IMG/VR virus record: IMGVR_UViG_2799112330_000002 | Location: 192,001 to 256,000 of that record | From: a virus | Lineage: Duplodnaviria > Heunggongvirae > Uroviricota > Caudoviricetes | Reading direction: 5' to 3' (one strand) | DNA length: 64,000 nt | Shown here: in pieces, positions 8,358-63,801 of the stretch | Layout: every line of letters starts with the position of its first letter | Numbering within the stretch: the stretch's first letter is position 1 | Translations under genes and position numbers: made by a program | The notes under the pieces: model-generated | What the model was told of the DNA's origin: nothing | What the model saw: only the letters and a program-made list of their open reading frames with translations | The model's database searches: none

Positions 8358-8978
8358 TTACTTTGTTTGTGAGTGCCAGCGTTTAGGCCATTTTGTCTTA
8401 TCTTTTTCAACTGGGCAATTCTTTACCATGAGACATTGATCTGCGGATGGATCAATATTCCATTTATAAAGACTATGGTTGAATGGAGTATCTTTAAACA
8501 TCATAGAAAAGTATTTAACATTCTTTACATTCCAGTTAGAAACATCTCCATTGAATTCTGATTGTGTAAACATAAATGACATTTCTTCAACATTACTTAC
8601 ATCCCATAAAGATATATCTTGATTAAACTTTGTACCATTAAACATACCAAACATATTTTTTACATTTGAAACATCCCACATAGAGAGATCTCCGTTGAAT
8701 TCGGAATTAAAAAACATGCAACGCATAGATTTAACTTTACTTACATCCCATAAAGATATATCTCCATTAAATTTAGAATAATAAAATACTTCATCCATAT
8801 CTGTTATTTTTGAAGTATCTATATCATTAAGATCAGCATTATTGCCTCTTTCTTTAATTAATTCTTTTACTAATTTTATTAATTCATCTTTTGTTTCTGG
8901 ATGATAGTTATATTTAGACTTAAGATTGTCTTTTGATAGCCTGAATTTCTCTATTATGAACTGACTTAGTTTCTTCAT
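8358..8978 (-). CDS. DUF285/BspA-like repeat protein (array 1, about 5 repeats)
   Basis: MKKLSQFIIEKFRLSKDN leader, LNDIDTS cap, FNGDISxWDVSNVxxMxxMF repeats. Confidence 0.9.
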   Translation of the reverse strand: MKKLSQFIIEKFRLSKDNLKSKYNYHPETKDELIKLVKELIKERGNNADLNDIDTSKITDMDEVFYYSKFNGDISLWDVSKVKSMRCMFFNSEFNGDLSMWDVSNVKNMFGMFNGTKFNQDISLWDVSNVEEMSFMFTQSEFNGDVSNWNVKNVKYFSMMFKDTPFNHSLYKWNIDPSADQCLMVKNCPVEKDKTKWPKRWHSQTK

Positions 8979-8995
8979 ATACATTATTATTTTAT

Positions 8996-9598
8996 TTATT
9001 CTTTATACCATGCTGGAGGATTCTTTTCTAATGGAGAATAACAAAACATCCATTTCATATCTTTAACATTACTTACATCCCATCCCGTTATATCTCCATT
9101 AAACTTAGATTTTTCAAACATTTTAAACATATACTTAACATTACTTACATCCCATTCTGATATATCTCCAGTAAATTGTGACTCCTGAAACATGCATGAC
9201 ATATTTTCAACATTACTTACATTCCATTTAGAGATATCTCCATTAAATTTTGACCTATAAAACATACATGCCATTTTTTTAACATTGCTTACATCCCATC
9301 CTGATATATCTCCATTAAACACTGATTCTTGAAACATATATTGCATATCTTTTACATTACTTACATCCCATAAAGAGATGTCTCCATTGAATTCTGATTC
9401 TGAAAATATATCAAACATATTGGTAATTTTAGAAGTATCTATATCATTAAGATCTGCATCATTACCTCTTTCTTCAATGAGTTTCTTTACTAATTCTTTT
9501 AGTTCATCTTTTGTCTTAGGATGATAGTTATAATGATGTTCAAGATTGTCTTTTGATAAGCGAAATTTCTCTATAATGAACTGGTTTAGTTTCTTCAT
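8996..9598 (-). CDS. DUF285/BspA-like repeat protein (array 1, 5 repeats)
   Basis: Same leader, 24-aa repeats, PLEKNPPAWY C-cap. Confidence 0.9.
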   Translation of the reverse strand: MKKLNQFIIEKFRLSKDNLEHHYNYHPKTKDELKELVKKLIEERGNDADLNDIDTSKITNMFDIFSESEFNGDISLWDVSNVKDMQYMFQESVFNGDISGWDVSNVKKMACMFYRSKFNGDISKWNVSNVENMSCMFQESQFTGDISEWDVSNVKYMFKMFEKSKFNGDITGWDVSNVKDMKWMFCYSPLEKNPPAWYKE

Positions 9599-9630
9599 AT
9601 ATATTATTATATTATTACTTTATTTATTCT

Positions 9631-10155
9631 TTAATACCATGCTGGTGGATCATCTTCTAATGGAGATTCATAAAACATATTATACATATGTTCAACATTA
9701 CTTACATCCCATTTAGATATATCTTGGCTAAACTCAGAAGCTTCAAACATTTCTTCCATATTAATAACATTTGTAACATCCCATTCAGATATGTCTCCAT
9801 CAAATTTAGAACTAGCAAACATATGATCCATATTCTTAACATTGTTTACATCCCATTGAGATATATCTCCATTAAATTTAGATTCTGCAAACATATAACG
9901 CATATCTTCAACATTACTTACATTCCATTCAGAGATGTTTCCATTAAAATTAGAATTCCAAAATAAAAAAGCCATATCAGTAATTTCTGCTGTATCTATA
10001 TCATTAAGATCAGCATTATTGCCTCTTTCTTTAATTAATTTATCTACTAATTTACTTAGTTGATCTTTTGTCTTAGGAGATTTATATGTTAGTTCTCTAA
10101 TATTATCTCTTGATAGTCTGAATTTTTCTGTTATGAACTGATTTAGTTTTTTCAT
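9631..10155 (-). CDS. DUF285/BspA-like repeat protein (array 1, 4 repeats)
   Basis: Same architecture; lies 9 nt downstream of the neck gene. Confidence 0.9.
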   Translation of the reverse strand: MKKLNQFITEKFRLSRDNIRELTYKSPKTKDQLSKLVDKLIKERGNNADLNDIDTAEITDMAFLFWNSNFNGNISEWNVSNVEDMRYMFAESKFNGDISQWDVNNVKNMDHMFASSKFDGDISEWDVTNVINMEEMFEASEFSQDISKWDVSNVEHMYNMFYESPLEDDPPAWY

Positions 10156-34464: not shown

Positions 34465-35052
34465 ATGAGCAACAAAAAGATCATTGGTATCGATTTGGGT
34501 ACCACTAATTCATGCGTATCAGTTTATGAAGCTGGTGAAGCGCAAGTAATTACAAATGCTGAAGGTAAACGTACTACTCCTTCAGTTGTAGGATTTACAA
34601 AAGATGGTGAACGTAAAGTTGGAGATCCAGCAAAACGTCAAGCTATTACAAATCCTAAGAACACAGTTTATTCTATTAAGCGTTATATGGGAATGAATTA
34701 TGACAAACTTAAGAAAGAAGACAAAGATGTTCCATATAACCTTATTAACGACAATAATCTTCCTAAAGTTGATATAGAAGGGAAGAAATATACTCCTCAA
34801 GAAATTTCCTCAATGATTCTAGCCAAGATGAAGAAGACAGCAGAAGACTATCTTGGTAATGAAGTTACAGAAGCAGTTGTTACTGTCCCTGCATATTTTG
34901 ATGACCGTCAACGTCAAGCTACTATTGAAGCTGGTAAGATTGCTGGACTTGATGTAAAGCGTATTGTCAATGAGCCAACCGCCGCAGCACTTGCTTATGG
35001 TGTTGACAAATCAGACAAAGATATGAAGATTGTTGTATTTGATTTCGGTGGT
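34465..35052 (+). CDS. dnaK: DnaK (Hsp70) exon 1
   Basis: [26 protein letters not shown]; ends at VFDFGG. Confidence 0.95.
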
Positions 35053-36562
35053 AAACGTCATGAAAACTGCCTCCGCGCTGCAGCTTAATTTAAGTTGTAT
35101 GTGTAAAATTAAAAACTTGTTAATTGCGGAGAACCCCACGTTAATTCGATAAGAGAGCTCTAATTACCGCACTTGATGGTGACATACAAGGTAGCAGATA
35201 GCTTAATTACTATTGGATGGTAAAAAGATTAGAGATTGGGCAACCGAAATAAGCGCAGCGAAGTTTCTTAGTAATAAGAAAAACGTTCAACGACTAGAAA
35301 AAGTAATCCTATAAAAAATATCTAAAGGACCAAATTTCCATGAATACAAGTTAATCTAAAGTGGAACTTTTGATTTATTTTTAATTAAATAAAATATATT
35401 AAAATTTATGGAAAGTTCTAATAAAGAAGAGATCTTTGACATTTTGATTAAACACATTTTAAAAATTTTTGATGAAAACAATAATGAAATAAAGTTTTCA
35501 GAAATAAAAATTAAAGAAACAAAATTAAAATATGCTTCAAATTCTTCAATACATGTATATTTAGATAATAATATATGTTTATCTTCAAAAGAAACAAGAA
35601 AATATAGAGTATTATATAAATGTAGATGTGGAAGAGAAAATAAAATTTTGCTTTGTAAATATTTATTAAAAAGAAAAATAGTATGTCAACATTGTTTACA
35701 GGATAGAACATTTGAAGATCATTTAGATGTACAACCATATTCAATTAAAAAAGGGTTAAGATCAAAAATTAATAATAACTTAAACAAGCAAAACAATGAA
35801 TTGATATTTGAAAATATGAATGATGAATTTAAAACAAATTATTATTCTAATCATTTAACTAATGAGGAATTTTTTAGATATCTTCCTTATATGTATCAAA
35901 TTAATAATGTTATTATAACACCAAAAAACATTAAATTAATTAGATATTTGGAACATTATCCAACAAATAATCAATTTAAATTTACTGCTAAAGTTTCATT
36001 TGATAATGGTATAACATATAAATCAATTCAAAATATAAAATTACAATGTTCTATATGTAAAAAAATATTTAATGTACATATTAATAACTTAAAAAATAAA
36101 GATTTATCTAATATTAAATGTAAAATGTGCTCTTTAAGTAATCATAGATATAATATTAAATTATTTGATGAATCTGGACTTACTTATCAATCTAATCCAG
36201 AAAAATATTTTATTGAGCAGTGTTATAAATATAATATTAAAATTAATAATGGATTAAAAATTCCTTATTACTTTAATAATTCAAATCATATATATAATTC
36301 AGATTTTTATTTACCAGAATATAATTATGTTATAGAAATTAAATCTGATAATATTTGGTACAGAAAAGATATAGAATCAGGAAAAATCAAAGCAAAAGAA
36401 CAAGGCGTAGTAGAATTTGGTAAACTTTATAATATAAAATATAAAATGTTGTTTGATCAGGATATAGATAACTTTATTAAAAACATTTTAGATGAAAGAG
36501 ATAGTCTAAACAATCAAGAGATTGATTGAAATTAAGATAAAGAGCTTAATGATAATAAAATG
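35053..36562 (+). ncRNA. Group I self-splicing intron in dnaK
   Basis: The 5' exon ends in U and the intron ends in G; splicing restores DFGG|GTHDVS. Elements seen: P (aattgcggagaa, 35122), Q (cgcagcgaag, 35254), R (gttcaacgacta, 35285), S (gagagatagtct, ~36497). P3 aacttgt/acaagtt, P8 atctaaa/tttagat and P7 gacta/tagtc pairings are present. Confidence 0.92.
35408..36529 (+). CDS. Intron-encoded homing endonuclease (Zn-ribbons plus C-terminal PD-(D/E)xK)
   Basis: CRCG, CQHC, CSIC, CKMC; YNSDFYLPEYNYVIEIKS; starts in the P8 loop. Confidence 0.8.
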   Translation: MESSNKEEIFDILIKHILKIFDENNNEIKFSEIKIKETKLKYASNSSIHVYLDNNICLSSKETRKYRVLYKCRCGRENKILLCKYLLKRKIVCQHCLQDRTFEDHLDVQPYSIKKGLRSKINNNLNKQNNELIFENMNDEFKTNYYSNHLTNEEFFRYLPYMYQINNVIITPKNIKLIRYLEHYPTNNQFKFTAKVSFDNGITYKSIQNIKLQCSICKKIFNVHINNLKNKDLSNIKCKMCSLSNHRYNIKLFDESGLTYQSNPEKYFIEQCYKYNIKINNGLKIPYYFNNSNHIYNSDFYLPEYNYVIEIKSDNIWYRKDIESGKIKAKEQGVVEFGKLYNIKYKMLFDQDIDNFIKNILDERDSLNNQEID

Positions 36563-37930
36563 GGTACTCATGATGTATCTATTCTTGAATTCGGTTCAGG
36601 TGTATTTGAAGTATTAGCAACAAGTGGTGATACACATCTTGGTGGTGATGATATTGACAATGTTGTTATGAAGTATCTTACCGATGAATTCAAGAATGAC
36701 AAGGGAATTGATCTTACAAAAGATCCTATGGCAATGCAACGTGTAAAGGAAGCAGCTGAAAAAGCAAAGATTGAATTATCATCAACTACATCATCAGAAA
36801 TCAATCTTCCTTATATTACTGCTAATGAAAATGGACCACAACATTTGGTAATGACATTAACAAGAGCGAAGTTTGAACAGTTGATTGATTCTATTGTAAA
36901 GAAAACTATTGAGCCTTGCCGTCTTGCATTAGAGCAAGCTAAGCTTTCTACTAAAGACATTGATGAGATTCTGTTGGTTGGTGGATCTACACGTATTCCT
37001 GCTATTCAGGAAGCTGTAAAGAACTTCTTTGGCAAGGAAGCATCTAAGGGAATCAATCCTGATGAAGCTGTTGCTATTGGAGCATCTATTCAGGGAGCTA
37101 TTCTCAATAAAGATGAAGGTGTTGGTGATATTGTACTTCTTGATGTAACTCCTATCTCTATGGGTATTGAAGCACATACACAATTTGATCCTGATGGAAG
37201 AATGGCAAAGATCATTGAAGCACAAACAACAATTCCTTGTAAGAAGAGTCAGACATTTACAACAGCTGTAGACAACCAGTCAGCAGTTACTATTGTAGTA
37301 CTTCAGGGAGAACGTACATATGCTAAAGATTGCAAGACTATTGGAACATTCAATCTTGAAGGCATTGCTCCAGCTAAAGCAGGTATTCCACAGATTGAAG
37401 TATCATTTGATATTGATGCTAATGGTGTATTGAATGTATCTGCTAAAGACAAGGCTACAGGTAAGGAACAGCAAATCACAATTTCTAACAACAATCTTTC
37501 AGATGCAGAAATTGAACAAATGAAGGCTGATGCAGAAGCACATAAGGAAGAGGACAAGAAGAGAGAAGAACAAATGAACAAGCTTAATATGGCTCAATTC
37601 TTGATTAACTCAATTGACCAGATGTTTGAAGATGAAAATATGAAAGACAAGATTACTGAGGAAGATAAGAACAATATCACTCCTGCTAAAGACAATCTTG
37701 CTGAAGTATTGAAAGAATATCAAACAGCTGAAGACAAGGAAGATGCAATGCTTAAAGTTGAAGAAGCTCAAAAGGCTTTGGAAGAAGTATGGAATCCTTT
37801 AGTAAAGAAACTTTATATTGATCCTAATGCTGCCGCTAATAATGAAGGTGGTAATCCTTTTACAGGAGATAATCCATTTGCTGGACAAGGTATTGATCCT
37901 TCACAATTTGCAGGAGCAGCAAATAAATAA
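36563..37930 (+). CDS. dnaK: DnaK (Hsp70) exon 2
   Basis: [50 protein letters not shown]. Confidence 0.95.
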
Positions 37931-39569: not shown

Positions 39570-40457
39570 TTATTTATACCATGCTGGTGGATTTCCTTCT
39601 AATGGAGATTCATCAAACATCCATCTCATATCTTGAACATTACTTACATCCCATTTAGATATGTCTCCATTAAATTTTGAACTATAGAACATACAACTCA
39701 TATTTTCAACATTGATAACATTCCATTTCGATATATCTTGATTGAATTTAGAATCATAAAACATATATCCCATATCTTTAACTTTACTTACATTCCATTG
39801 AGATATATCATTATTGAATTCAGATTCTTCAAACATATGACCCATATTTTTAGCATTCCTAATATCCCACTGAGATATATCTATGTTAAATTTATATCCA
39901 TAAAACATGTATTGCATATCTTCAGCTTTGCTTACATCCCAGTTAGATATATTTTGATTAAATTTAGAATATGAAAACATCCATGACATATCTTTAACAC
40001 TACTTACATCCCAATCAGAAATATCTTGATTAAATTTAGATTCAGCAAACATACTAGACATATTATTAACATTACTTACATCCCATTTAGATATGTCTTG
40101 ATTAAATTTAGATTCAGCAAACATATATTGCATATTTTCAACATTATGTATATCCCATAAAGAGATATCTCCATTGAATTTTGATCTACAAAATATATAT
40201 GACATATCCTCAACATTACTTACATCCCATTCAGAAATATCCCCATTAAATTTAGATGAAAAAAATAATTTAGACATATCAGTAATTTTTGATGTATCTA
40301 TATCATTAATATCTGCATCAATACCTCTTTCTTTAATTAATTTTTTTATTAATTTTTGTAGTTCATCTTTTGTTTTTGGATGATAATTATATTGATGGGT
40401 CAAATTGTCTTTTGATAGACGAAATTTCTCTGTTATAAACTGGTTTAGTTTCTTCAT
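39570..40457 (-). CDS. DUF285/BspA-like repeat protein (array 2, 9 repeats)
   Basis: Leader, 24-aa repeats, NPPAWY cap. Confidence 0.9.
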   Translation of the reverse strand: MKKLNQFITEKFRLSKDNLTHQYNYHPKTKDELQKLIKKLIKERGIDADINDIDTSKITDMSKLFFSSKFNGDISEWDVSNVEDMSYIFCRSKFNGDISLWDIHNVENMQYMFAESKFNQDISKWDVSNVNNMSSMFAESKFNQDISDWDVSSVKDMSWMFSYSKFNQNISNWDVSKAEDMQYMFYGYKFNIDISQWDIRNAKNMGHMFEESEFNNDISQWNVSKVKDMGYMFYDSKFNQDISKWNVINVENMSCMFYSSKFNGDISKWDVSNVQDMRWMFDESPLEGNPPAWYK

Positions 40458-40478
40458 ATATATTAGATATTATTTTAT

Positions 40479-41159
40479 TTATTCTTTATACCATGCTGGC
40501 ATATTATATTTTAATGGACATCCAAAAAACATATCATCCATATCTTTAACATTACTTACATTCCATTTTGAAATATCTCCATTAAATTTAGAATAAGCAA
40601 ACATCTGATACATTGTTTTAACATTACTAACGTCCCATTGAGAAATATCTCCATTAAATTTTGATCTTGCAAACATAGCTATCATATTTGTAACATTACT
40701 AACGTCCCATTGAGAAATATCTCCATTAAAAACCGAATCTTTAAACATAATATGCATATTTTTAACACTACTTACATCCCAATTAGATATATCTCCATTA
40801 AATTTAGATTCTCTAAACATACTGTCCATATCTGTAACATTGCTTACATCCCATTTTGATATATCTCCATTAAAATCAGAATTCAAAAACATATTTGTCA
40901 TATCTTTAACATTACTTACATCCCACAAAGATATATCTCCATTGAAATATGAATCATAAAATATAGATGTCATATCAGTGATTTCAGAAGTATCTATATC
41001 ATTTAGATCAGCCTTATTACCTCTTTCTTCAATTAATTTATCTACTAAGTCATTTAGTTCATATAAAGTCTTTGGGTAATAATGATATGTATATACGTTC
41101 TTTAAGTTATCTTTTGATAGTCTAAACTTTTCTGTTATGAACTGATTTAGTTGTTTCAT
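40479..41159 (-). CDS. DUF285/BspA-like repeat protein (array 2, 6 repeats)
   Basis: Same architecture. Confidence 0.9.
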   Translation of the reverse strand: MKQLNQFITEKFRLSKDNLKNVYTYHYYPKTLYELNDLVDKLIEERGNKADLNDIDTSEITDMTSIFYDSYFNGDISLWDVSNVKDMTNMFLNSDFNGDISKWDVSNVTDMDSMFRESKFNGDISNWDVSSVKNMHIMFKDSVFNGDISQWDVSNVTNMIAMFARSKFNGDISQWDVSNVKTMYQMFAYSKFNGDISKWNVSNVKDMDDMFFGCPLKYNMPAWYKE

Positions 41160-41188
41160 ATATAATAATTTATATTATTTAGTTTATG

Positions 41189-41644
41189 TTATTCTTTATA
41201 CCATGCTGGTGGGTTCTGTTCTAATGGGCATCCGTAAAATATATCAAGTTTATTTTCAACATTATGCGTATCCCATTCAGAGATATCTCCAGAAAATTTT
41301 GAACAAGTAAACATATAATCCATATATTTGACTTTACTTACGTCCCATCCAGATATATCACCATTAAATTCTGAATCTGCAAACATATCACTCATATTTA
41401 TTACATTACTTACATCCCATAAAGATATATCTCCATTAAAATTAGAACAATAAAAAGTTGCAGACATATCTTTTATGTTAGATGTATCTATATCATTAAG
41501 ATTTGCGTCATACCCTCTTTCCTCAATTAACTTACTAATAAGAGTATTAAAATTTTTATCATTTGGATGATAGTTATAATGAGGTTCAAGATTGTCTTTT
41601 GATATACGAAATTTCTCCGTTATGAACTGATTTAATTTCTTCAT
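41189..41644 (-). CDS. DUF285/BspA-like repeat protein (array 2, 3 repeats)
   Basis: Same architecture. Confidence 0.9.
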   Translation of the reverse strand: MKKLNQFITEKFRISKDNLEPHYNYHPNDKNFNTLISKLIEERGYDANLNDIDTSNIKDMSATFYCSNFNGDISLWDVSNVINMSDMFADSEFNGDISGWDVSKVKYMDYMFTCSKFSGDISEWDTHNVENKLDIFYGCPLEQNPPAWYKE

Positions 41645-41657
41645 ATATATTATTATT

Positions 41658-42278
41658 TTATTTATAAAATTTATTATACAATTCCGTATACCATGCTGGC
41701 GGATTTTTTTCTAATGGGGAATAATCAACCATCCATGCTATATTTTTGACATTACTTACATCCCATTTAGATATATCTCCATTGAATTTGGACTGTTCAA
41801 ACATATGACACATATCTGCGACATTACTTACATCCCATTTAGATATATCTCCATTAAACTTAGAATTATAAAACATTCCATTCATAGTTGTAACATTACT
41901 TACATTCCAACCAGAGATATCTTCATTAAATTTAGAACGCCAAAACATTCCTGCCATGCTTTTAACATTTGATACATCCCATTTTGATATATCTCCATTA
42001 AAATTTGATTCTTTAAACATCCATGTCATACGTTCAACATTGCTTACATTCCATTCAGAAATATCCCCATTGAATTTAGATTTATAAAATAATTCAGACA
42101 TATCAGTAATTGCACAAACATCTATATCATTAAGATCTGCATCATTCCCTCGTTCTTTAATTAGTTTCTTGACTAATTCTTTTAGTTCATCTTTTGTTTT
42201 TGGATAATAATTATATTGATTAATACTATCTTTTGATAAACGAAATTTCTCTATAATGAACTGGTTTAGTTTCTTCAT
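41658..42278 (-). CDS. DUF285/BspA-like repeat protein (array 2, 5 repeats)
   Basis: Same architecture; tail WYTELYNKFYK. Confidence 0.9.
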   Translation of the reverse strand: MKKLNQFIIEKFRLSKDSINQYNYYPKTKDELKELVKKLIKERGNDADLNDIDVCAITDMSELFYKSKFNGDISEWNVSNVERMTWMFKESNFNGDISKWDVSNVKSMAGMFWRSKFNEDISGWNVSNVTTMNGMFYNSKFNGDISKWDVSNVADMCHMFEQSKFNGDISKWDVSNVKNIAWMVDYSPLEKNPPAWYTELYNKFYK

Positions 42279-42287
42279 ATATTAATT

Positions 42288-42893
42288 TTATCTATTTTTA
42301 TACCATGCTGGTGGATTCTTTTCTAATGGGCAAAAACTAAACATCAATTCCATATTTTTGACATTACTTACATCCCATTGGGATATATCTCCATTAAATT
42401 TCGATTCTTTAAACATCCACGACATATCTTCAACATTACTTACATCCCATTGAGATATATCACCTCTAAATTTAGAATTAGAAAACATTCTATACATAGT
42501 TGTGACATTGCTTACTTCCCAACCAGAGATATCTCCATTAAATTTAGAACCCCAAAACATTCCTGCCATTTTTTCCACATTACTAACATCCCATAAAGAT
42601 ATATCTCCATTAAATTTTGATTCTTTAAACATCCATGTCATTTGTTCAACATTACTTACATCCCATTGAGAAATATCCCCATTAAATTCAGATTTAAAAA
42701 ACATATATGACATATCAGTAATTTCAGATGTGTCAATATCATTGAGATCAGCATCATTACCTCTTTCTTTAATTAATTTATTTACTAATTCTTTTAGTTC
42801 TTTTTGTATTTTAGGATGATAATTATAACGAGGTTCAAGATTGTCTTTTGATAATCTGAATTTCTCTACTATAAACTGATTTAATTTCTTCAT
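42288..42893 (-). CDS. DUF285/BspA-like repeat protein (array 2, 5 repeats)
   Basis: Same architecture. Confidence 0.9.
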   Translation of the reverse strand: MKKLNQFIVEKFRLSKDNLEPRYNYHPKIQKELKELVNKLIKERGNDADLNDIDTSEITDMSYMFFKSEFNGDISQWDVSNVEQMTWMFKESKFNGDISLWDVSNVEKMAGMFWGSKFNGDISGWEVSNVTTMYRMFSNSKFRGDISQWDVSNVEDMSWMFKESKFNGDISQWDVSNVKNMELMFSFCPLEKNPPAWYKNR

Positions 42894-42917
42894 ATACTAT
42901 TTCATTTAAATTTACAA

Positions 42918-43775
42918 TTAAAAATAAATTACCTTTTCTTTCCTAAACCATTTAGGAGGATTGACTTCTAATGGAGTTTTACGAAACATATCTGTTATAA
43001 AACATTTTTTACTTACTTTCCAGTTATTAAGATCCTGATTAAAATTAGAACCATAAAACATTCTATTCATACTTTTTGCTTTTCTTACATCCCATCCAGA
43101 TATGTCTTGATTAAATGCACTTTTTTCAAACATATATCCAAAATCTGTAACCTCTGATACATTCCATTTACTAATATCATAATTAAATGCAGTACCTCTA
43201 AACATGTCTTTCATATCTCTAACATTAGATACATTCCATTTAGATAGATCTTGGTTAAAATTTTTATCATAATTAAACATAGATTCCATTGTTTCAACCT
43301 TACTAACATTCCAATCAGATATATCCTGATTAAAATTAGAACCAGAAAACATCCAACACATATCTTCAACATTTGATACATCCCAATCAGAAATATCTTT
43401 GTTAAATGCGCAATGTTGGAACATTGCTGACATATTTTTGACTTTACTTACGTCCCATCCAGATATATCTCCATTAAAATCTGAATAACTAAACATATTT
43501 GTCATGTCTTCAACATTAGAAACGTCCCATTTAGAAATATCTCCATTAAAATTAAAAGACTGCCCACTATATTGTTCATAACTAAATATACCACACATAT
43601 TTGTAATTTCAGATGTGTCAATATCATTAAGATCAGCATCTTCACCCCTTTCACTAATTAAATCATGAACTAATTGTTGTAGTTCATTTATTGTCTTAGG
43701 GTGATAATTATAAGATCTGAGATTGTCTTTTGATATACGGAATTTTTCATTTACAAATTGTACAAATGATTTCAT
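42918..43775 (-). CDS. DUF285/BspA-like repeat protein (array 2, 8 repeats, divergent)
   Basis: Leader MKSFVQFVNEKFRISKDN. Confidence 0.9.
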   Translation of the reverse strand: MKSFVQFVNEKFRISKDNLRSYNYHPKTINELQQLVHDLISERGEDADLNDIDTSEITNMCGIFSYEQYSGQSFNFNGDISKWDVSNVEDMTNMFSYSDFNGDISGWDVSKVKNMSAMFQHCAFNKDISDWDVSNVEDMCWMFSGSNFNQDISDWNVSKVETMESMFNYDKNFNQDLSKWNVSNVRDMKDMFRGTAFNYDISKWNVSEVTDFGYMFEKSAFNQDISGWDVRKAKSMNRMFYGSNFNQDLNNWKVSKKCFITDMFRKTPLEVNPPKWFRKEKVIYF

Positions 43776-43801
43776 AATTTATATATATTGAGTTTATATA
43801 T

Positions 43802-44356
43802 TTACTTTGTAGATGTATATATATTTTTGTACCATTTTGGCGGATTATCTTCCAATGCTGAACCTTGAAATGCACGAAAGTCAGATATTATACTGGATGT
43901 ATCCCAATGATTAAGATCACATTTGAAATTCTCACAGTTTATAAACATATATGTAATATTTGTTACTTTTGATATGTTCCAGTTTGTTAAATCAGAATCA
44001 AATTTTTCACAATATCCAAATAAGTTTTCCATATTTTCAACATTACTTACATCCCATTCACTTACATCAGAATTAAAGTTCTTACATCCCCAAAATACTC
44101 CAAACATATCTACAACATTTGAAGTATCCCATTCTGATATATCTATATTATGAGGATCTAAGTTAAAAAATGCTCCTGACAAGGTGGTCATTCCAGATAC
44201 ATCAATATCATTAAGATTGGCGTTTTTGTCTTTTGCTAATCTTTTTTTAAGTATATCTTTTAGTTCCTTTATTGTTCGCGGATAATACTTATATTGTGTA
44301 ATATTGTCCTTTGATAGTCTAAATTTCTCTGTTATGAACTGATTTAATTTCTTCAT
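43802..44356 (-). CDS. DUF285/BspA-like repeat protein (array 2, about 4 divergent 25-aa repeats)
   Basis: Standard leader but a divergent body (CKNFNSDVSEW, CEKFDSDLTNW). Confidence 0.88.
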   Translation of the reverse strand: MKKLNQFITEKFRLSKDNITQYKYYPRTIKELKDILKKRLAKDKNANLNDIDVSGMTTLSGAFFNLDPHNIDISEWDTSNVVDMFGVFWGCKNFNSDVSEWDVSNVENMENLFGYCEKFDSDLTNWNISKVTNITYMFINCENFKCDLNHWDTSSIISDFRAFQGSALEDNPPKWYKNIYTSTK

Positions 44357-44385
44357 ATATAATAATTTATATTATTTAGTTTATG

Positions 44386-45132
44386 TTATTTTTTATACCA
44401 TGCTGGAGGGTTCTTTTCTAATGGAGTATTTTCAAACATATCTGTTGTATCACATATTGTATTTATTTTCCATGTAGATATATCTTGATTAAAAGGAGAG
44501 TCTGCAAACATTGCTACCATATTTTTTACAAAGGTAACATTCCACCCAGATATGTCCTGATTAAACTTAGATTTATAAAACATATGATCCATATATATAA
44601 CATTATGTATATTCCATTTAGATATGTCTCCATTAAATTGAGATTTTCTAAACATTCCTCCCATATTTGTTACTTCACTTACATCCCATTGAGAAATATT
44701 TTGATTAAATGATGATTCAGAAAACATCCATGTCATATCACCAACGTTGCTTACATTCCACTTAGAGATATCCCCATTAAATTTTGAACCACAGAACATA
44801 CAACGCATATTTTCAACCTTACTTACATCCCAATTAGATATGTCTCCATTAAACTCTGATTCATAAAACATGTGTTCCATAGTTTTGACATTACTTACAT
44901 CCCATTGAGAAATATCTCCATTAAAAATAATAGGCCAAAACATCTTAGACATATCGGTAATTTCTGATGTATCTATATCATTGAGATCAGCGTCTTTACC
45001 TCTTTCTTCAATGAGTTTCCTTACTAATTCTTTTAATTCATCTCTTGACTTTGGGTGATAGTTATAATGAGATTCAAGATTATCTTTTGATATACGAAAT
45101 TTTTCTGTAATAAACTGTCTTAATTTCTTCAT
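44386..45132 (-). CDS. DUF285/BspA-like repeat protein (array 2, 7 repeats)
   Basis: Same architecture. Confidence 0.9.
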   Translation of the reverse strand: MKKLRQFITEKFRISKDNLESHYNYHPKSRDELKELVRKLIEERGKDADLNDIDTSEITDMSKMFWPIIFNGDISQWDVSNVKTMEHMFYESEFNGDISNWDVSKVENMRCMFCGSKFNGDISKWNVSNVGDMTWMFSESSFNQNISQWDVSEVTNMGGMFRKSQFNGDISKWNIHNVIYMDHMFYKSKFNQDISGWNVTFVKNMVAMFADSPFNQDISTWKINTICDTTDMFENTPLEKNPPAWYKK

Positions 45133-45145
45133 ATATATTATTACT

Positions 45146-45754
45146 TTATTTATTCTTTTTATACCATGCTGGCGGATTCTTGTCTATTGGACATTTATAA
45201 AACATATCATCCATATATTTAACATTATTAACATTCCATACAGATATATCTCCATTAAATTTAGAATTTAGAAACATCCATTCCATATCAACAACATTAC
45301 TTACATCCCATTTAGATATATCACCAGTGAATTTGGAACCAGCAAACATATTTGACATATTTTTAACACTACTTACACCCCATTGAGAAATATCTCCGTT
45401 GAATTTAGAATTATAAAACATACATGTCATATCTTCAACATTACTAACATCCCAATTAGATATATCTCCATTAAATTGAGAATCTCTAAACATAGATCTC
45501 ATGCTTTTAACATTACTAACGTCCCATAAAGAAATGTCTCCATTGAATTCTGATTTATTAAACATAGCTGACATATCAGTAATTGTGGAAGTATCTATAT
45601 CATTGAGATCACCATTATTACCTCTTTCTTTAATTAATTTATCTACTAATTCTTCTAGTTCATCTTTTGTCTTAGGATGATAATTATAATGAGGTTCAAG
45701 ATTGTCTTTTGATAATCTGAATTTCTCTGTTATAAACTGATTTAATTTTTTCAT
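45146..45754 (-). CDS. DUF285/BspA-like repeat protein (array 2, 5 repeats)
   Basis: Start set at MKKLNQF (ATG 45754) by comparison with paralogues. Confidence 0.9.
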   Translation of the reverse strand: MKKLNQFITEKFRLSKDNLEPHYNYHPKTKDELEELVDKLIKERGNNGDLNDIDTSTITDMSAMFNKSEFNGDISLWDVSNVKSMRSMFRDSQFNGDISNWDVSNVEDMTCMFYNSKFNGDISQWGVSSVKNMSNMFAGSKFTGDISKWDVSNVVDMEWMFLNSKFNGDISVWNVNNVKYMDDMFYKCPIDKNPPAWYKKNK

Positions 45755-45770
45755 ATAATTTATATTTTTT

Positions 45771-46190
45771 CTATATTTTAACAATTTCTAATTTATTTTT
45801 ATCCCATTTATAACCCTTTTCATACAGTTTCTCATAAAACATCTCATATTCTTCATCTGTAGCCAATTTATACCATTCTGGATGATTAACATCTCCTACT
45901 CCCATATCTTCAGAAACAACTAATTTATTATATGGAATTACTAATACTGCATGAAATATTATTGTAGTTTCTGAACTATTGGGATAGATTTTGTCTTTTC
46001 CTTTATTCAATGATTTATATATAAAGAACTGTTTGCCTCCTTTATTCCATATTTGAATATCAGGATGAATAAATTCTACTATGTCACCATTTTGTGCATT
46101 TTTAATAGACCAATTTTCCCTATCAAAGAAATCTAAATTTGCTTTAGATAATCTAAATTTTTCAATAATGAATTGAGTTAGTCGTTTCAT
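45771..46190 (-). CDS. Non-repeat protein carrying the array leader
   Basis: MKRLTQFIIEKFRLSKANL followed by an unrelated domain (WSIKNAQNGDIV...LATDEE....L.EKGYKWD). Confidence 0.8.
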   Translation of the reverse strand: MKRLTQFIIEKFRLSKANLDFFDRENWSIKNAQNGDIVEFIHPDIQIWNKGGKQFFIYKSLNKGKDKIYPNSSETTIIFHAVLVIPYNKLVVSEDMGVGDVNHPEWYKLATDEEYEMFYEKLYEKGYKWDKNKLEIVKI

Positions 46191-47406: not shown

Positions 47407-48078
47407 ATGAAAAAATTTCAAGAATTCAATTCTGAAAACACGTTAAACTGTGATTATAAGACTTGTATTATAGGGAAGTTGAAGAACGCACTTAAAGAAG
47501 AATTCAATGCATGGTATGGTTATATCATTGTTAAAGAATGGTTGACTGGACTAAGCAGAGTTGATATTGAAAAGATGTATGATGAAACCGCTAAGGATGA
47601 ATTAGAAGATCATGCATTTTGGTTGATGAAACGTATCAATGAGCTTGGTGGAACAATTGAAGACATATCTGCTTCTCCAGCTTCTTGGTTGACAGCTAAT
47701 CATACTTATATTTCTCCTGTTTGGTCATGGAAAACAAATAATACATGTTGTCAAACTGGATCATGCTGCGGAGATTGTGAAGATCCATGTGGAGATATTT
47801 GTGATGATCTACCTACAATTACACTTGGTGAACCTTATGAATGTTGTGGAGATGGATGTCAATGTGGATGTCAATGCAAGCCAGATATAATAGAAGTAAA
47901 GCAATCCTTATTAACTAATATAAAAAATGAAGAAGGAGCAATTGAGACTTATAAAGATTTAATTAGAACTGCTCAATCTGATTCTGATTTTGTAACTGAA
48001 CGTAAATGTAAAGAAATTCTTGCCGATGAAGAGGAACATTTACAAATGCTAAAAGATTTTTTAGCCGATATTAGTTAA
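47407..48078 (+). CDS. Ferritin/DPS-like protein with Cys-rich insertion
   Basis: EEFNAWYGY, DELEDHA, RINELGG, EEGAIETY, EEEH ferroxidase-type motifs; insert CCQTGSCCGDC...CCGDGCQCGCQC. Confidence 0.85.
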   Translation: MKKFQEFNSENTLNCDYKTCIIGKLKNALKEEFNAWYGYIIVKEWLTGLSRVDIEKMYDETAKDELEDHAFWLMKRINELGGTIEDISASPASWLTANHTYISPVWSWKTNNTCCQTGSCCGDCEDPCGDICDDLPTITLGEPYECCGDGCQCGCQCKPDIIEVKQSLLTNIKNEEGAIETYKDLIRTAQSDSDFVTERKCKEILADEEEHLQMLKDFLADIS

Positions 48079-58338: not shown

Positions 58339-58941
58339 TTATTCTTTATACCATGCTGGTGGATTTTTTTCTAATGGAGATCTATAAAACATTTCTCGCA
58401 TATTATCAACATTACTTACATCCCAATGAGATAAATCATAATTAAAATTTTCACATATATAAAACATACATTCCATATTTTTAACCTTACTCACATCCCA
58501 TTTAGATATATCTCTATTAAATTTAGATTGACAAAACATATAATCCATACCTCTAACATGACTTACATTCCATTGAGATATATCTCCATTGAATTGAGAA
58601 TCCATAAACATAGCTCTCATATTTGTAACATTACTAACATCCCATTCTGATATGTCTCCATTAAATTTAGAATATTCAAACATAGCAAACATAGTTTCAA
58701 CATTACTTACATCCCATCCAGATATGTCTCCATTAAATTTAGAAAAATAAAATACTTCTGACATATCAGTAATTTCAGATGTATCTATATCATTTAGATT
58801 AGCCTTATTACCTCTTTCTTTAATTAATTCCTTTACTAATTTTATTAGTTCATCTTTTGTCTTAGGATAATAATGATATGACTTAAGATTGTCTTTTGAT
58901 ATTCTGAATTTCTCTGTTATAAACTGGTTTAATTTTTTCAT
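58339..58941 (-). CDS. DUF285/BspA-like repeat protein (array 3, 5 repeats)
   Basis: Leader, repeats, cap. Confidence 0.9.
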   Translation of the reverse strand: MKKLNQFITEKFRISKDNLKSYHYYPKTKDELIKLVKELIKERGNKANLNDIDTSEITDMSEVFYFSKFNGDISGWDVSNVETMFAMFEYSKFNGDISEWDVSNVTNMRAMFMDSQFNGDISQWNVSHVRGMDYMFCQSKFNRDISKWDVSKVKNMECMFYICENFNYDLSHWDVSNVDNMREMFYRSPLEKNPPAWYKE

Positions 58942-58946
58942 ATATA

Positions 58947-59741
58947 TTAGATTAACTTATTTTTATACCATGCTGGTGGATTATTTTCTAATGGTGAATA
59001 GTCAAACATATATGTCACATCTCCAACATTTGAAATATTCCATTTAGAAATATCTTGGTCAAATTTTGCTCCCCAAAACATCCTATTCATATTTAAAACT
59101 TTACTTACATCCCATAAAGATATGTCTCCATTGAAATCTGAATCATAAAACATATGACTCATATTTTTTACTTTACTTACGTCCCATCCAGATATATCAC
59201 CATCAAATACCGATTCATAAAACATACCAAACATATCTTCAACATTACTTACATCCCATTGAGAAATATCTTGGTTAAATTTTGTTCCCCAAAACATCCT
59301 ATTCATATATTTAACATTACTAACATCCCATTTAGATATATCTCCATTAAATTTAGATTGCCTAAACATTTCTGCTGTATTTACAACTTTACTTACATCC
59401 CATTCAGATATATCTCCGTTGAATTTTGACTCTTGAAACATTCCTTCCATATTCTTAACATTACTAACGTCCCATTCTGATATATCCACATTGAATTCAG
59501 AATAAGCAAACATATATGACATATCCGTAACATTAGTAGTATCTATATCATTAAGATCAGCATCATTACCTCTTTCTATAATTAGTTTCCTTACTATTTG
59601 GTGTAGTTCTTTATTTGTTTTTGGATGATAATTGTAATGAGGCTCAAGATTGTCTTTTGATAGACGAAATTTTTCTGTTATATATTTGGTTATACCAAAG
59701 GCTCTTTCAGCTTCTGAAATATATTGATTTAATTTCTTCAT
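58947..59741 (-). CDS. DUF285/BspA-like repeat protein (array 3, 7 repeats, double leader)
   Basis: MKKLNQYISEAERAFGITKYITEKFRLSKDN. Confidence 0.9.
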   Translation of the reverse strand: MKKLNQYISEAERAFGITKYITEKFRLSKDNLEPHYNYHPKTNKELHQIVRKLIIERGNDADLNDIDTTNVTDMSYMFAYSEFNVDISEWDVSNVKNMEGMFQESKFNGDISEWDVSKVVNTAEMFRQSKFNGDISKWDVSNVKYMNRMFWGTKFNQDISQWDVSNVEDMFGMFYESVFDGDISGWDVSKVKNMSHMFYDSDFNGDISLWDVSKVLNMNRMFWGAKFDQDISKWNISNVGDVTYMFDYSPLENNPPAWYKNKLI

Positions 59742-59762
59742 ATATATTAGATATTATTTCAT

Positions 59763-60434
59763 TTAACTTTTATACCAAGCTGGTGGATTCTTTTTTAATG
59801 GGCAAGCCCCAAACATTCCTGTCATGCTTCTAACATTTGATACATCCCATTTTGATATATCTCCATTAAATTTAGATTGACAAAACATATAATCCATATC
59901 TCTAACATGACTTACATTCCATTGAGATATATCACCATTGAATTTTGATCTGGCAAACATATCAGACATATTCGTAACACTACTGACATCCCATTTAGAA
60001 ATATCTCCATTAAATTCAGAATTCAAAAACATACTATCCATTAATTTTACTTTGCTTACATTCCATTTAGAAATGTCATTATTGAATTTAGAATTCAAAA
60101 ACATACATTCCATATCTTTAACCTTACTTACATCCCACAAAGATATATCACCATTGAATGTAGATTCATAAAACATATAATCCATTTTTTCAACATTACT
60201 TACATCCCATAAAGATATATCTCCATTGAATGTAAAACTTCTAAATAGCATGCTCATATCAGTAATCTCAGAAACATCTATATCATTTAGGTTTGCTTCA
60301 TTGCCTCTTTCTTCAATTAATTTGATTATTAATTTTTTTAATTCAATTTTTGTTTGAGGCTGATACTGAAACTGATTAAGATTGTCTTTTGATAGTCTGA
60401 ATTTCTCTGTTATGAATTGATTTAGTTTTTTCAT
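59763..60434 (-). CDS. DUF285/BspA-like repeat protein (array 3, 6 repeats)
   Basis: Same architecture. Confidence 0.9.
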   Translation of the reverse strand: MKKLNQFITEKFRLSKDNLNQFQYQPQTKIELKKLIIKLIEERGNEANLNDIDVSEITDMSMLFRSFTFNGDISLWDVSNVEKMDYMFYESTFNGDISLWDVSKVKDMECMFLNSKFNNDISKWNVSKVKLMDSMFLNSEFNGDISKWDVSSVTNMSDMFARSKFNGDISQWNVSHVRDMDYMFCQSKFNGDISKWDVSNVRSMTGMFGACPLKKNPPAWYKS

Positions 60435-60447
60435 ATATATTATTACT

Positions 60448-60975
60448 TTATTTATACCATGCCGGTGGATTGTTTTCTAATGGGCAATCCTGAAACATAT
60501 CTATCCCACACTTAACTTTACTTACATCCCATTTAGAGATATCTCCATTAAATTTAGACTTTTGAAACATCCATCCCATATTTTCAACATTACTTACATC
60601 CCATTTAGAAATATCTTGGTTAAATTTTGTTCCCCAAAACATATATTTCATATTTTTAACATTATGTACATCCCATAAAGAGATATCTCCATTAAATTTG
60701 GATTTACAAAATATATATTGCATATCTTCAACCTTGCTTACATCCCATGTCGAAATATCCCCATTAAAATTAGAAGTAAAAAATATTGAAGACATATCGG
60801 TAATTTCAGATGTATCTATATCATTGAGATCAGCATCATTACCTCGTTCTTTAATTAGTTCCTTTACTAATTTCCTTAGTTCATCTCTTGTCTTTGGATG
60901 ATAGTTATAGTGAGGCTCAAGATTATCATTGGATAGTCTGAATTTCTCTGTTATGAATTGATTTAATTTCTTCAT
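60448..60975 (-). CDS. DUF285/BspA-like repeat protein (array 3, 4 repeats)
   Basis: Same architecture. Confidence 0.9.
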   Translation of the reverse strand: MKKLNQFITEKFRLSNDNLEPHYNYHPKTRDELRKLVKELIKERGNDADLNDIDTSEITDMSSIFFTSNFNGDISTWDVSKVEDMQYIFCKSKFNGDISLWDVHNVKNMKYMFWGTKFNQDISKWDVSNVENMGWMFQKSKFNGDISKWDVSKVKCGIDMFQDCPLENNPPAWYK

Positions 60976-60985
60976 GTATAAGGTT

Positions 60986-61447
60986 TTATTTATTTTTATA
61001 CCATGCCGGAGGATTATCTTCTAATGGGCAATGTTTAAATATATCGCGCATATCTATACCATTACTTACATCCCATTGAGTTATATCTTCATTGAATTCA
61101 GACCAGCTAAACATATCTCTCATAGTTTTAACTTTACTTACATCCCATGTGGATATATCTCCATTAAATTTAGAATGTTTAAACATTTCTTGCATATTAT
61201 CAACATTACTTACATTCCATTCAGAGATATCTCCATTAAAATTAGACGCCCAAAATAAACCACTCATATCAGTAATTTCAGAAGTATCTATATCGTTGAG
61301 ATTAGCCTTATTCCCGCGTTCTTTAATTAACTTATTAATCAATCTATATAATTCATAAACGTTTTTAGGATGATAGTTATAATGAGGCTCAATATTGTCT
61401 TTTGATAACCTAAACTTTTCTGTTATAAACTGATTTAGTTGTTTCAT
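60986..61447 (-). CDS. DUF285/BspA-like repeat protein (array 3, 3 repeats)
   Basis: Same architecture. Confidence 0.9.
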   Translation of the reverse strand: MKQLNQFITEKFRLSKDNIEPHYNYHPKNVYELYRLINKLIKERGNKANLNDIDTSEITDMSGLFWASNFNGDISEWNVSNVDNMQEMFKHSKFNGDISTWDVSKVKTMRDMFSWSEFNEDITQWDVSNGIDMRDIFKHCPLEDNPPAWYKNK

Positions 61448-61473
61448 ATATATTAGATATTAACTTATTTTAT

Positions 61474-61935
61474 TTATTCTTTATACCATGCTGGAGGATT
61501 TTTTAACAATGGAGAATTATCAAATATCCATGACATATTTTTGACATTACTTACATTCCATTGAGATATGTCTCTGTTGAATTCAGATTCATCAAACATA
61601 CATTGCATAATTTTAACATTACTAACATCCCATTTAGAAATATCTCCATTGAACTCTGATTTATTAAACATAGCTTCCATAGTTGTAACATTACTTACAT
61701 CCCATTGAGATATATCCCCATTAAATTTAGATTCAGCAAACATAGCTCTCATATTTGTAACCTTACTTACGTTCCAATTAGATATATCTCCATTAAATTT
61801 AGAACCACAAAATATGAGTGACATATCAGTAATTTCCGATGTGTCTATATCATTAAGATCAGCATCATCTCCTCTTTCTTTAATGTCTTTTGATAGACGG
61901 AATTTCTCTGCGATGAATTGGTTTAATTTCTTCAT
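61474..61935 (-). CDS. DUF285/BspA-like repeat protein (array 3, 4 repeats, N-cap deleted)
   Basis: MKKLNQFIAEKFRLSKD joined directly to IKERG. Confidence 0.88.
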   Translation of the reverse strand: MKKLNQFIAEKFRLSKDIKERGDDADLNDIDTSEITDMSLIFCGSKFNGDISNWNVSKVTNMRAMFAESKFNGDISQWDVSNVTTMEAMFNKSEFNGDISKWDVSNVKIMQCMFDESEFNRDISQWNVSNVKNMSWIFDNSPLLKNPPAWYKE

Positions 61936-61948
61936 ATATTAGATTAAC

Positions 61949-62476
61949 TTATTTTTTATACCATTTAGGAGTGTTATTTGTTAATGGGCGGGCATGAAAC
62001 ATATATCTCATATCTTTAACATTAGATACATTCCAATTAGATATATCTTTATTGAATTCTGATCCTCTAAACATCCACGACATATCTTCAACATTAGATA
62101 CATCCCATTTAGATATATCACCATTAAATTGAGAATCTCTAAACATTGAATACATAGTTTTAACTTTACTTACATCCCATTCAGATATGTCTTGATTAAA
62201 TGATGAATTAGCAAACATATATTTCATGTCTTCAACATTACTTGTATTCCAATCAGATATATCTCCATTGAAATCAGAATCCATAAATAATTCTGACATA
62301 TTAGTAATTTCTAAAGTATCTATATCATTGAGATCGGCATCATTCCCACGTTCTTCAATAAGTTCATTTACTAATTCCCTTAGTTCATCTCTTGTCTTAG
62401 GATGATAATTGTATTGATTAAAATTGTCTTTTGATAGACGGAATTTCTCCGCAATGAACTGGTTTAACTGTTTCAT
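61949..62476 (-). CDS. DUF285/BspA-like repeat protein (array 3, 4 repeats)
   Basis: Leader MKQLNQFIAE. Confidence 0.9.
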   Translation of the reverse strand: MKQLNQFIAEKFRLSKDNFNQYNYHPKTRDELRELVNELIEERGNDADLNDIDTLEITNMSELFMDSDFNGDISDWNTSNVEDMKYMFANSSFNQDISEWDVSKVKTMYSMFRDSQFNGDISKWDVSNVEDMSWMFRGSEFNKDISNWNVSNVKDMRYMFHARPLTNNTPKWYKK

Positions 62477-62489
62477 TTATTATTACTAT

Positions 62490-63185
62490 TTATTTATAAA
62501 ATTTATTATACCATTCTGTATACCATTTGGGAGGATTATTTTCCAATGGTGAGGCGGTAAATATATTTCTCATATTTTTAACATTAGATACATTCCAACT
62601 AGATATGTCTTTATTGAAATCTGATCCTCTAAACATATGACACATATCAGCGACTTTACTTACATCCCATTTAGATATGTCTTGATTAAATTTAGAATAT
62701 GAAAACATCCAAGCCATATCCTTAACATTACTTACATCCCAATCAGAAATATCTTGATTAAATTTAGATTCAGCAAACATAGTATACATGCTCCAAACAT
62801 TACCTATATTCCATTTAGATATGTCTTGATTAAATACTGATTCAGCAAACATATATTGCATATCTTCGACATTATGTACATCCCATAAAGAGATATCTCC
62901 GTTAAATTTTGATCTTGCAAACATATTACTCATATTTTTAACATTACTAACATCCCATTCAGATATATCACCAGTGAAATTAGTATTTGCAAATAATGCT
63001 GACATATCTATAATTTCAGATGTATCTATATCATTAAGATTAGCATCCATACCTCTTTCGCTAATTAACTTTCGCATTGTTTCTCTTAATTCTTTATTTG
63101 ACTTAGGATGATAATTATAATGATGTTCAAGATTGTCTTTTGATAAACGGAATTTCTCGGTTATGAACTGGTTTAGTTTCTTCAT
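62490..63185 (-). CDS. DUF285/BspA-like repeat protein (array 3, 6 repeats)
   Basis: Tail WYTEWYNKFYK. Confidence 0.9.
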   Translation of the reverse strand: MKKLNQFITEKFRLSKDNLEHHYNYHPKSNKELRETMRKLISERGMDANLNDIDTSEIIDMSALFANTNFTGDISEWDVSNVKNMSNMFARSKFNGDISLWDVHNVEDMQYMFAESVFNQDISKWNIGNVWSMYTMFAESKFNQDISDWDVSNVKDMAWMFSYSKFNQDISKWDVSKVADMCHMFRGSDFNKDISSWNVSNVKNMRNIFTASPLENNPPKWYTEWYNKFYK

Positions 63186-63198
63186 ATATTACTTTAAC

Positions 63199-63801
63199 TT
63201 ATTTTTTATACCATTTAGGAGGATTATCTTCTAATGGACATTTATAAAACATTTCTTGCATATATTCAATATTACTTACATCCCATTTAGATATATCTTG
63301 GTTAAATTTTGATCCATAAAACATTCTATCTATATATTTAACATTACTTACATTCCAATTAGATATATCTCTATTAAATTTAGACTTAACAAACATATTA
63401 GACATATTTTCAACATTACTTACATTCCAATTAGAGATATCTTTATTAAATTTAGAATTAGTAAACATATATTGCATATCTTCAACTTTATGTACATTCC
63501 AATTAGAGATATCTTTATTAAATGCAGAATAACCAAACATCCATGACATATATTTAACATTACTTACATCCCATTCAGATATATCTCCATTGAATTTAGA
63601 GTTATAAAATATATTTGTCATATCAGTAATTGCAGAAGTATCTATATCATTTAGATCTGCATCATTGCCTCTTTCTTTAATTAGTTTCTTTACTAATTCT
63701 TTTAACTCATCTTGTGTCTTTGGATGATAATTATATTGATGGGTTAGATTGTCTTTTGATAATCTGAATTTTTCTATAATGAATTGATTTAGTTTCTTCA
63801 T
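63199..63801 (-). CDS. DUF285/BspA-like repeat protein (array 3, 5 repeats)
   Basis: Same architecture. Confidence 0.9.
   Translation of the reverse strand: MKKLNQFIIEKFRLSKDNLTHQYNYHPKTQDELKELVKKLIKERGNDADLNDIDTSAITDMTNIFYNSKFNGDISEWDVSNVKYMSWMFGYSAFNKDISNWNVHKVEDMQYMFTNSKFNKDISNWNVSNVENMSNMFVKSKFNRDISNWNVSNVKYIDRMFYGSKFNQDISKWDVSNIEYMQEMFYKCPLEDNPPKWYKK

Follow-up and report, generated by a model that had tools for sequence, protein, structure and literature searches.

The stretch of DNA analysed here (the window) is 64,000 nucleotides (nt) long and corresponds to positions 192001-256000 of C82, a contig of 410,106 bp and 29% GC that forms part of a 1.9-Mb metagenome bin. At 58339-63801 of the window there are nine open reading frames (ORFs) on the minus strand, all of which encode repeat proteins of the DUF285 family; the five that were tested against the family profile, PF03382, scored between 121 and 247 bits (cut-off 25). 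Two further arrays of the same family lie elsewhere in the window. The genes, referred to below by their first coordinate, and the arrays are as follows.

58339..58941, minus strand: DUF285 gene, 200 amino acids (aa), 5 units, with a leader like the capsid-targeting sequence (CTS) of phage T4; PF03382 174 bits, and unit spacing
58947..59741, minus strand: DUF285 gene, 264 aa, 7 units, with a doubled leader (YISE ... YITE); PF03382 247 bits
59763..60434, minus strand: DUF285 gene, 223 aa, 6 units; PF03382 193 bits
60448..60975, minus strand: DUF285 gene, 175 aa, 4 units; its unit 2 is 92% identical in nt to unit 2 of 39570
60986..61447, minus strand: DUF285 gene, 153 aa, 3 units
61474..61935, minus strand: DUF285 gene, 153 aa, 4 units; N-terminal cap shortened in frame by about 23 residues
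61949..62476, minus strand: DUF285 gene, 175 aa, 4 units, the last of which has 92% nt identity to the last unit of 62490
62490..63185, minus strand: DUF285 gene, 231 aa, 6 units; mosaic structure is clearest here, by unit identities
63199..63801, minus strand: DUF285 gene, 200 aa, 5 units; the member whose structure was predicted (AlphaFold2, leucine-rich repeat fold)
39570..45754, minus strand: second array of the window, nine DUF285 genes of 151-295 aa and 3-9 units
8358..10155, minus strand: third array of the window, three DUF285 genes (208, 200 and 174 aa), syntenic with two DUF285 genes of the relative L003

To judge from its genes, C82 is a T4-like jumbo phage, host DNA being ruled out. 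Profile searches located a gene for a gp21-type prohead protease (PF03420, 46.8 bits, C82:82997-83326) and one for a gp23-type capsid protein (PF07068, 96.7 bits, C82:85320-86483), and the Hsp70 of C82 is 50% identical to that of the Lak megaphages. The DUF285 family, which is the PARCEL family (PF03382/TIGR02167) defined by Roske et al. 2010 (PMC2996958), has 45 genes on C82 arranged in nine arrays with 243 units, and all 45 ORFs are intact. Seven family members tested scored 111-287 bits against the gathering cut-off of 25, and 89 of the 91 PF03382 matches in the bin are on C82. The window holds 21 of the genes and 109 of the units, in three arrays (8358-10155, 39570-45754 and 58339 onwards).

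The proteins are laid out as a leader (MKKLNQFITEKFRLSKDNL), a helical cap, a run of 24-residue solenoid turns and a PLExNPPAWYK cap. There are 2-9 units per gene, with 3-9 in typical members; the spacing from one Trp to the next is exactly 24 residues in 181 of 198 cases and the length of a gene with n units is 24.56 x n + 79 aa (r = 0.99). In the shortened member, 61474, the first Trp is residue 53, compared with 75-78 in most members, with the leader and all four units kept. The unit scaffold can be written F-x-x-S-x-F-N-G-D-I-S-x-W-D-V-S-N-V-x-x-M-x-x-M. Over the 243 units, positions 2, 3, 22 and 23 are hypervariable, with an entropy of 3.6-3.9 bits and 17-19 residue types, positions 5, 12, 19 and 20 are semi-variable (2.5-2.95 bits) and the remaining positions are mostly below 1 bit, the highest being position 8 at 1.7. 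An earlier note, made from the letters of this DNA alone, had described a fixed scaffold with hypervariable positions, gene lengths stepping by about 24 aa and some 110 modules; the entropy profile, the length relationship and the count of 109 are all in agreement with it.

The predicted fold of the family is a curved leucine-rich repeat (LRR) solenoid. The AlphaFold2 model of the protein encoded at 63199..63801 has a predicted local distance difference test score (pLDDT) of 93.5, with low confidence at residues 1-20. When this model was compared with known structures using VIA-align, the top 50 matches were all LRR proteins, with Z-scores of 8.7-11.7 and root-mean-square deviations of about 3 Å over 127-166 aligned residues; they include TpLRR, internalins, a hagfish variable lymphocyte receptor (VLR) and a giant-virus FNIP protein. 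The clear LRR matches come from VIA-align alone, the E-values from Foldseek being weak (0.1 or worse), and a sequence search of the PDB matched no solved structure. The DUF285 proteins of C82 have no signal peptide or lipobox.

The pattern of substitution differs markedly between the variable positions and the scaffold. For the closest unit pairs, the Nei-Gojobori ratio of non-synonymous to synonymous substitution rates (dN/dS) is 1.6-1.9 at the hypervariable, 1.1-1.4 at the semi-variable and 0.10-0.18 at the scaffold positions. Under the GY94 codon model, applied to four gene sets, the corresponding ratio (omega) is 1.06, 2.3, 2.1 and 2.4 for the hypervariable codons, 0.06 for the scaffold and 0.13-0.21 for the N-terminal region. 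The magnitude for the hypervariable codons is unreliable, as the trees are saturated at 12-30 substitutions per codon, and the maximum-likelihood (ML) omega of the semi-variable class is unstable (0.07-5.8). Twelve independent gene pairs picked by scaffold identity, a choice that depresses dS, gave a dN/dS of 2.5 (bootstrap interval 2.0-3.3). All three estimators point the same way, with the variable positions above the scaffold, and the non-synonymous excess anticipated in the earlier note is supported (1.06-2.5 versus 0.06-0.18), though saturation makes its size unreliable. The residues found at the hypervariable positions are also far from what mutation would give, with Trp (57-fold), Gly (43-fold), Ala (31-fold) and Arg (5-fold) over-represented and Ile (0.05-fold) and Leu (0.12-fold) depleted (chi-square 9813, 19 degrees of freedom), and of 181 four-residue combinations at the junctions 170 are distinct. 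Together the composition bias and the distinct junctions suggest that these positions are constrained in kind and diversified in identity, as would be expected for a binding surface.

The copies are old. Unit-to-unit DNA identity has a median of 71% and a maximum of 94%, and no identical pair exists among the 243 units; the closest pair of paralogues is 83% identical in DNA and the longest exact tract common to two genes is 63 nt. Inside the repeat tracts the longest exact run is 53 nt, whereas in a null in which codon columns were shuffled the maximum averages 45 and reaches 58. Location has hardly any influence on unit identity, which is 0.718 for units adjacent in a gene, 0.715 for the same array and 0.716 for different arrays. 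Even in the invariant leader the proportion of synonymous differences (pS) is 0.69, near saturation, with a proportion of non-synonymous differences (pN) of only 0.07, and it is therefore selection on the protein, rather than recent conversion, that has kept the copies alike. Taken as a whole, the family is old and has been kept together by protein-level selection, not by recent homogenisation. The high divergence weakens recombination tests and dN/dS tests alike.

Against this background there are traces of exchange between units. When each codon column was shuffled among the units as a null, 5.6 unit pairs of at least 87.5% nt identity were expected and 38 were found, and for at least 90% identity nine were found versus 0.35 expected, although most nearest-neighbour identities fall inside the null. 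Close pairs are equally frequent between and within arrays (0.16% each), and only about a quarter of the unit matches of 86% or more are in register counted from either gene end. The flanks of the best pairs are 74-76% identical compared with a background of 72%, and shared ancestry thus fades within about one unit. Among genes of the same length, the ML trees of the N-terminal region and of the first and second halves of the repeats reject one another in the approximately unbiased (AU) test, with p of 0.001-0.02 for five-unit genes and 0.003-0.04 for six-unit genes, and more weakly for four-unit genes; simple duplication of whole genes is disfavoured by this incongruence, as the earlier note had supposed. 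A 3SEQ-style scan found 7-13% of parent-child triplets at p<0.05 versus 5% expected, the best Sidak-corrected p being 0.035. The pairwise homoplasy index (PHI), in a codon-block version on four same-length sets, gave p = 0.06-0.53, none of them significant and all leaning towards recombination. The clearest individual case is 62490, in which units 2-5 follow 39570 (82-94%), unit 5 additionally resembles 41658, and for the last unit the identity is 92% to the neighbouring gene 61949 and 65-69% to 39570.

The recurring modules named in the earlier note were all found in the translations: VSHVR[GD]MDYMFCQS in 58339 and 59763, ADMCHMF with the WYTExYNKFYK tail in 41658 and 62490, FAESKFNQDISDWDVS.VKDM.WMFSYS in 39570 and 62490, IFC.SKFNGDISLWD.HNV in 39570 and 60448, and VTNMRAMF in 58339 and 61474. 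Its proposal of ongoing recombination survives in part. Mosaic ancestry is supported by the AU tests, the triplets and the flanks, but the 83% identity of the closest paralogues, the lack of identical units and the PHI result speak against its being ongoing. We read unit-scale exchange as real but old, and at a modest level. That the diversity arises without a reverse transcriptase is upheld, since none was matched in the assembly. A diversity-generating retroelement was rejected on the absence of a PF00078 reverse transcriptase from the assembly (controls were positive) and of any near-identical repeat pair, and a cassette-based gene-conversion system was rejected because each of the 45 copies is a complete ORF that has its own start, leader and cap, and the longest identical tract is 63 nt.

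The DNA between the genes has features of its own. The intergenic spacers are of a few types, common to several arrays, and carry no Shine-Dalgarno-like motif, which fits a Bacteroidota host. Three genes in two arrays (the A7 and A8 junctions; C82 252986, which is window 60986, 267035 and 267739) are preceded by 40 nt that are 100% identical among them, while the leaders that follow are only 77-88% identical, a hint that each gene has a conserved regulatory element. A T4-late-type TATAAATA promoter in the WYK tail and intergenic DNA was considered and rejected as too weak, the motif preceding 10% of leader ORFs versus 5% of others.

The leader decapeptide, MKKLNQFITE, has M1, K2 and E10 invariant in all 45 proteins, with L4 in 43, F7 in 42 and I8 in 44, and metagenomic homologues retain M1, K2, I8 and E10. 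The CTS of T4 is MKTYQEFIAE (PMC8442874), with which the leader has M1, K2, F7, I8 and E10 in common; targeting in T4 depends on residues 4 and 7 and processing on residues 8 and 10, gp21 cleaving after L/I-X-E (PMC9026906), and the T4 internal proteins are diverse anti-defence proteins with the CTS as their sole common part (PMC3012670). The motif M-K-x-[LI]-x-x-[FY]-[IL]-x-E starts 83 ORFs on C82, versus seven on the other 1.5 Mb of the bin. Of those 83, 37 have bodies unrelated to DUF285, and many of these lie at 68-82 kb (e.g. C82:68777-82075), just upstream of the protease and capsid genes. One such ORF is in the window:

45771..46190, minus strand: ORF with the family's 19-residue leader and a non-DUF285 body, 139 aa from an MKRLTQF start; no Pfam match

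Conservation extends past the T4-like decapeptide through residues 11-19 (KFRLSKDNL). In three genes (window 58947-59741, C82:292831-293712 and C82:139330-139908) the leader is doubled and contains two I-x-E sites (MKKLNQYISE...YITEKFRLSKDNL). Propeptides of the phiKZ type have multiple cleavage sites, which these doubled leaders recall. The match to the CTS at its mapped positions, together with the T4-type protease and capsid genes, makes loading into the prohead, cutting and injection the most likely fate, and the family proteins are probably packed into the head and injected.

The relatives of C82, which come from rumen metagenomes, differ in what they hold at the sites of the arrays. In L003 the flanking helicase is 71% and a 304-aa protein 92% identical to those of C82, whereas identity falls to 63% for the DUF285 gene in the corresponding place, which has different residues at the variable positions. 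L011, the closest relative by its sigma factor (82%), has one unrelated gene at the site of the array starting at 58339. A topoisomerase fragment of this relative (L011:4895-5617) has 98% protein identity to C82:257561-259459, with adjacent genes at 32-84%. In other relatives two topoisomerase genes are adjacent or at most one gene apart where C82 holds a further array, and none of the other relatives compared has an array after DnaJ; a DnaJ-based search among viral contigs gave a single unrelated match and nothing else. The content of the arrays turns over from one lineage to another, and genes orthologous by position have diverged as far as paralogues. These rumen phages are strongly mosaic themselves.

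The reading that we favour, and consider rather likely, is that the family represents old, selectively maintained, small soluble LRR (DUF285/PARCEL) binders of a T4-like jumbo phage, presumably loaded into the head and injected. Each is a four-part protein, consisting of a leader of 10-19 residues, a helical cap, 3-9 turns of 24 residues and the PLExNPPAWYK cap. The hydrophobic skeleton of each turn is under strong purifying selection, while positions 22, 23 and 2, 3, which flank the invariant M-F pair, are kept polar, aromatic or small and are hardly ever repeated; near-unique residues at these four positions suggest that each protein presents its own recognition surface. The family would have grown as genes were duplicated and whole 72-nt units were gained or lost, with occasional homologous exchange of unit-sized pieces among paralogues, also across arrays. 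Measured against synonymous change these events are old, and the family is therefore no active generator of diversity: ordinary duplication, the gain and loss of units and an occasional exchange account for its evolution, and no new diversity-generating mechanism is involved. The proteins are predicted to enter the prohead, to be cut there after Glu10 and to pass into the host with the injected DNA, where they may bind host proteins such as defence factors. A more specific proposal, which we put forward tentatively, is of a capsid-carried germline repertoire of about 45 LRR binders, injected with the DNA against variable host defence or takeover targets, with positive selection at four positions of each turn and a slow exchange of units maintaining its diversity; such a repertoire would be the viral, offensive equivalent of the immune receptor repertoires built on LRRs.

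Several points weigh against the favoured reading. Saturation undermines the dN/dS estimates, and two of the three estimators also suffer from the way in which pairs were chosen; the recombination signals are modest, with PHI non-significant and a best corrected triplet p of 0.035, and convergent selection or model misfit at high divergence could inflate them; and the packaging of 83 different tagged proteins would be without precedent. An alternative account is one of plain duplication and divergence, in which the family arose only through duplication of whole genes and of units, the exposed variable positions drifting neutrally and the shared modules being due to chance or convergence. A unit identity that is nearly flat at about 0.72 in all categories would fit such an account, as would nearest-neighbour values mostly within the column-shuffle null, the PHI result and the one omega estimate, 1.06, that is neutral. 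It would seem unlikely nevertheless, because the AU tests reject congruence of the segments, close unit pairs exceed the null (38 versus 5.6) with sharp decay at their flanks, the composition at the variable positions is strongly off the mutational expectation and the named recurrences match in several rare residues together, e.g. H16, R19, D22, Y23, C2 and Q3.

Diversification might instead be active and combinatorial in present populations, with frequent cassette-like conversion or recombination of units and arrays. The mosaic signals (AU, triplets, 62490 and flank decay) could be taken in this sense, and so could the spread of the closest unit pairs over arrays, the three A7/A8 gene junctions identical over 40 nt, and the relatives that span the sites without arrays there, which implies turnover of array content. 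We regard this as quite unlikely, given that no units are identical (maximum 94%), that the longest exact tract is 63 nt and the scaffold by itself would give runs of about the length seen within repeat tracts, that the closest paralogues are 83% identical and adjacent units no more alike than units of different arrays, and that synonymous sites are near saturation with PHI non-significant; moreover each copy is a full ORF with start, leader and stop, which leaves no silent cassettes and no single expression site. It is also conceivable that the proteins are not virion cargo, the leader serving translation initiation, degradation control or another assembly, and the proteins being intracellular or on the particle surface. 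The very large number of tagged ORFs and the conservation of residues 11-19, which T4 does without, would agree with this. The leader is, however, conserved as protein and not as DNA (pS and pN as above), and a role at the RNA or DNA level is therefore disfavoured; it matches the T4 CTS at the mapped functional positions 7, 8 and 10 (PMC9026906), a gp21-type protease is present and many tagged ORFs cluster by the head genes, which makes this alternative very improbable.

Two other genes of the window have unusual structures. The phage Hsp70 gene is split (34465-37930), with profile positions 1-196 at 34465-35088 and 196-591 at 36560-37930; the 1.47-kb gap contains a 373-aa Cys-rich ORF (35408-36529) that matched nothing in Pfam. 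Either an intron carrying a homing-endonuclease-like ORF or a truly split gene could account for the arrangement. In a ferritin/rubrerythrin-like protein encoded at 47407-48078, a Cys-rich insert (CCQTGSCCGDCEDPCGDICDD...CCGDGCQCGCQC) separates the two halves of the ferritin fold.

If injection is correct, large phages would carry a far bigger and more diverse cargo of pre-made proteins than the few internal proteins of T4, and the variable faces would point to host targets that are otherwise hard to find, probably defence proteins. A small, stable and naturally diversified 24-residue LRR scaffold could also be of interest for binder engineering.

A variable scaffold with intragenomic shuffling was already published for PARCEL/DUF285 in 2010 (PMC2996958), and the pattern is not new as a kind. 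PARCEL repeats were described there as varying in number, with a conserved amphipathic skeleton and variable hydrophilic residues, and as subject to horizontal gene transfer and shuffling within genomes. The C82 family resembles them in its variable number of tandem units, each about 25 residues long, its hydrophobic skeleton with variable hydrophilic positions, its multigene expansion and dispersal, the proposed shuffling and its antisense frames. Antisense open frames of at least 60 aa number 57 across the 45 genes and run through the repeat tracts (e.g. window 59154-59429 and 61092-61358, plus strand), a surprising length for AT-rich DNA; such frames were likewise seen in PARCEL coding regions (PMC2996958). 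Many PARCEL proteins are, however, membrane lipoproteins, whereas those of C82 are small and soluble with a phage head-targeting-like leader and a strict period of 24. In a simple test of the C82 unit for dyad symmetry, the consensus matched its reverse complement at best at 0.53 (shuffled mean 0.505, 95th percentile 0.556); the PARCEL study had relied on a MEME palindrome search. DUF285/PARCEL genes have been annotated in jumbo phages (PMC7765460); we found no paper joining a CTS-like tag to a large DUF285 family.

The closest parallel for the leader is provided by IPI, IPII, IPIII and Alt of T4, in which a 10-residue MK...FI.E tag with I-x-E at 8-10 is likewise found on unrelated bodies (PMC3012670, PMC9026906, PMC8442874), the tagged proteins are variable accessory genes, and the genome also encodes the gp21-type protease and the gp23-type capsid protein. 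The tagged proteins of T4 are only a handful, however, while C82 has about 83 candidates, 45 of them in one LRR family, and for these packaging and cleavage are predictions. Among giant viruses, DUF285 occurs in 13% of the coding regions of an Aureococcus virus, two of its members being packaged in particles (PMC7507832). This virus and the FNIP LRRs of Cafeteria roenbergensis virus (CroV; PDB 7zal, Z 8.9) share with C82 a massive, lineage-specific expansion of LRR-type proteins of similar fold, and in the giant viruses some members are found in particles; the host of C82 is bacterial, its proteins are smaller, and a T4-type leader is undescribed for giant viruses. The lamprey and hagfish VLRs and cassette-based antigenic variation are similar in that the fixed frame of an LRR solenoid bears variable positions (VLR A29, Z 9.8) and in that part of the diversity is owed to exchange of repeat-sized pieces. 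C82 differs from these in having no expression site, silent cassettes or near-identical donor tracts, its diversity being germline, old and spread over 45 complete genes.

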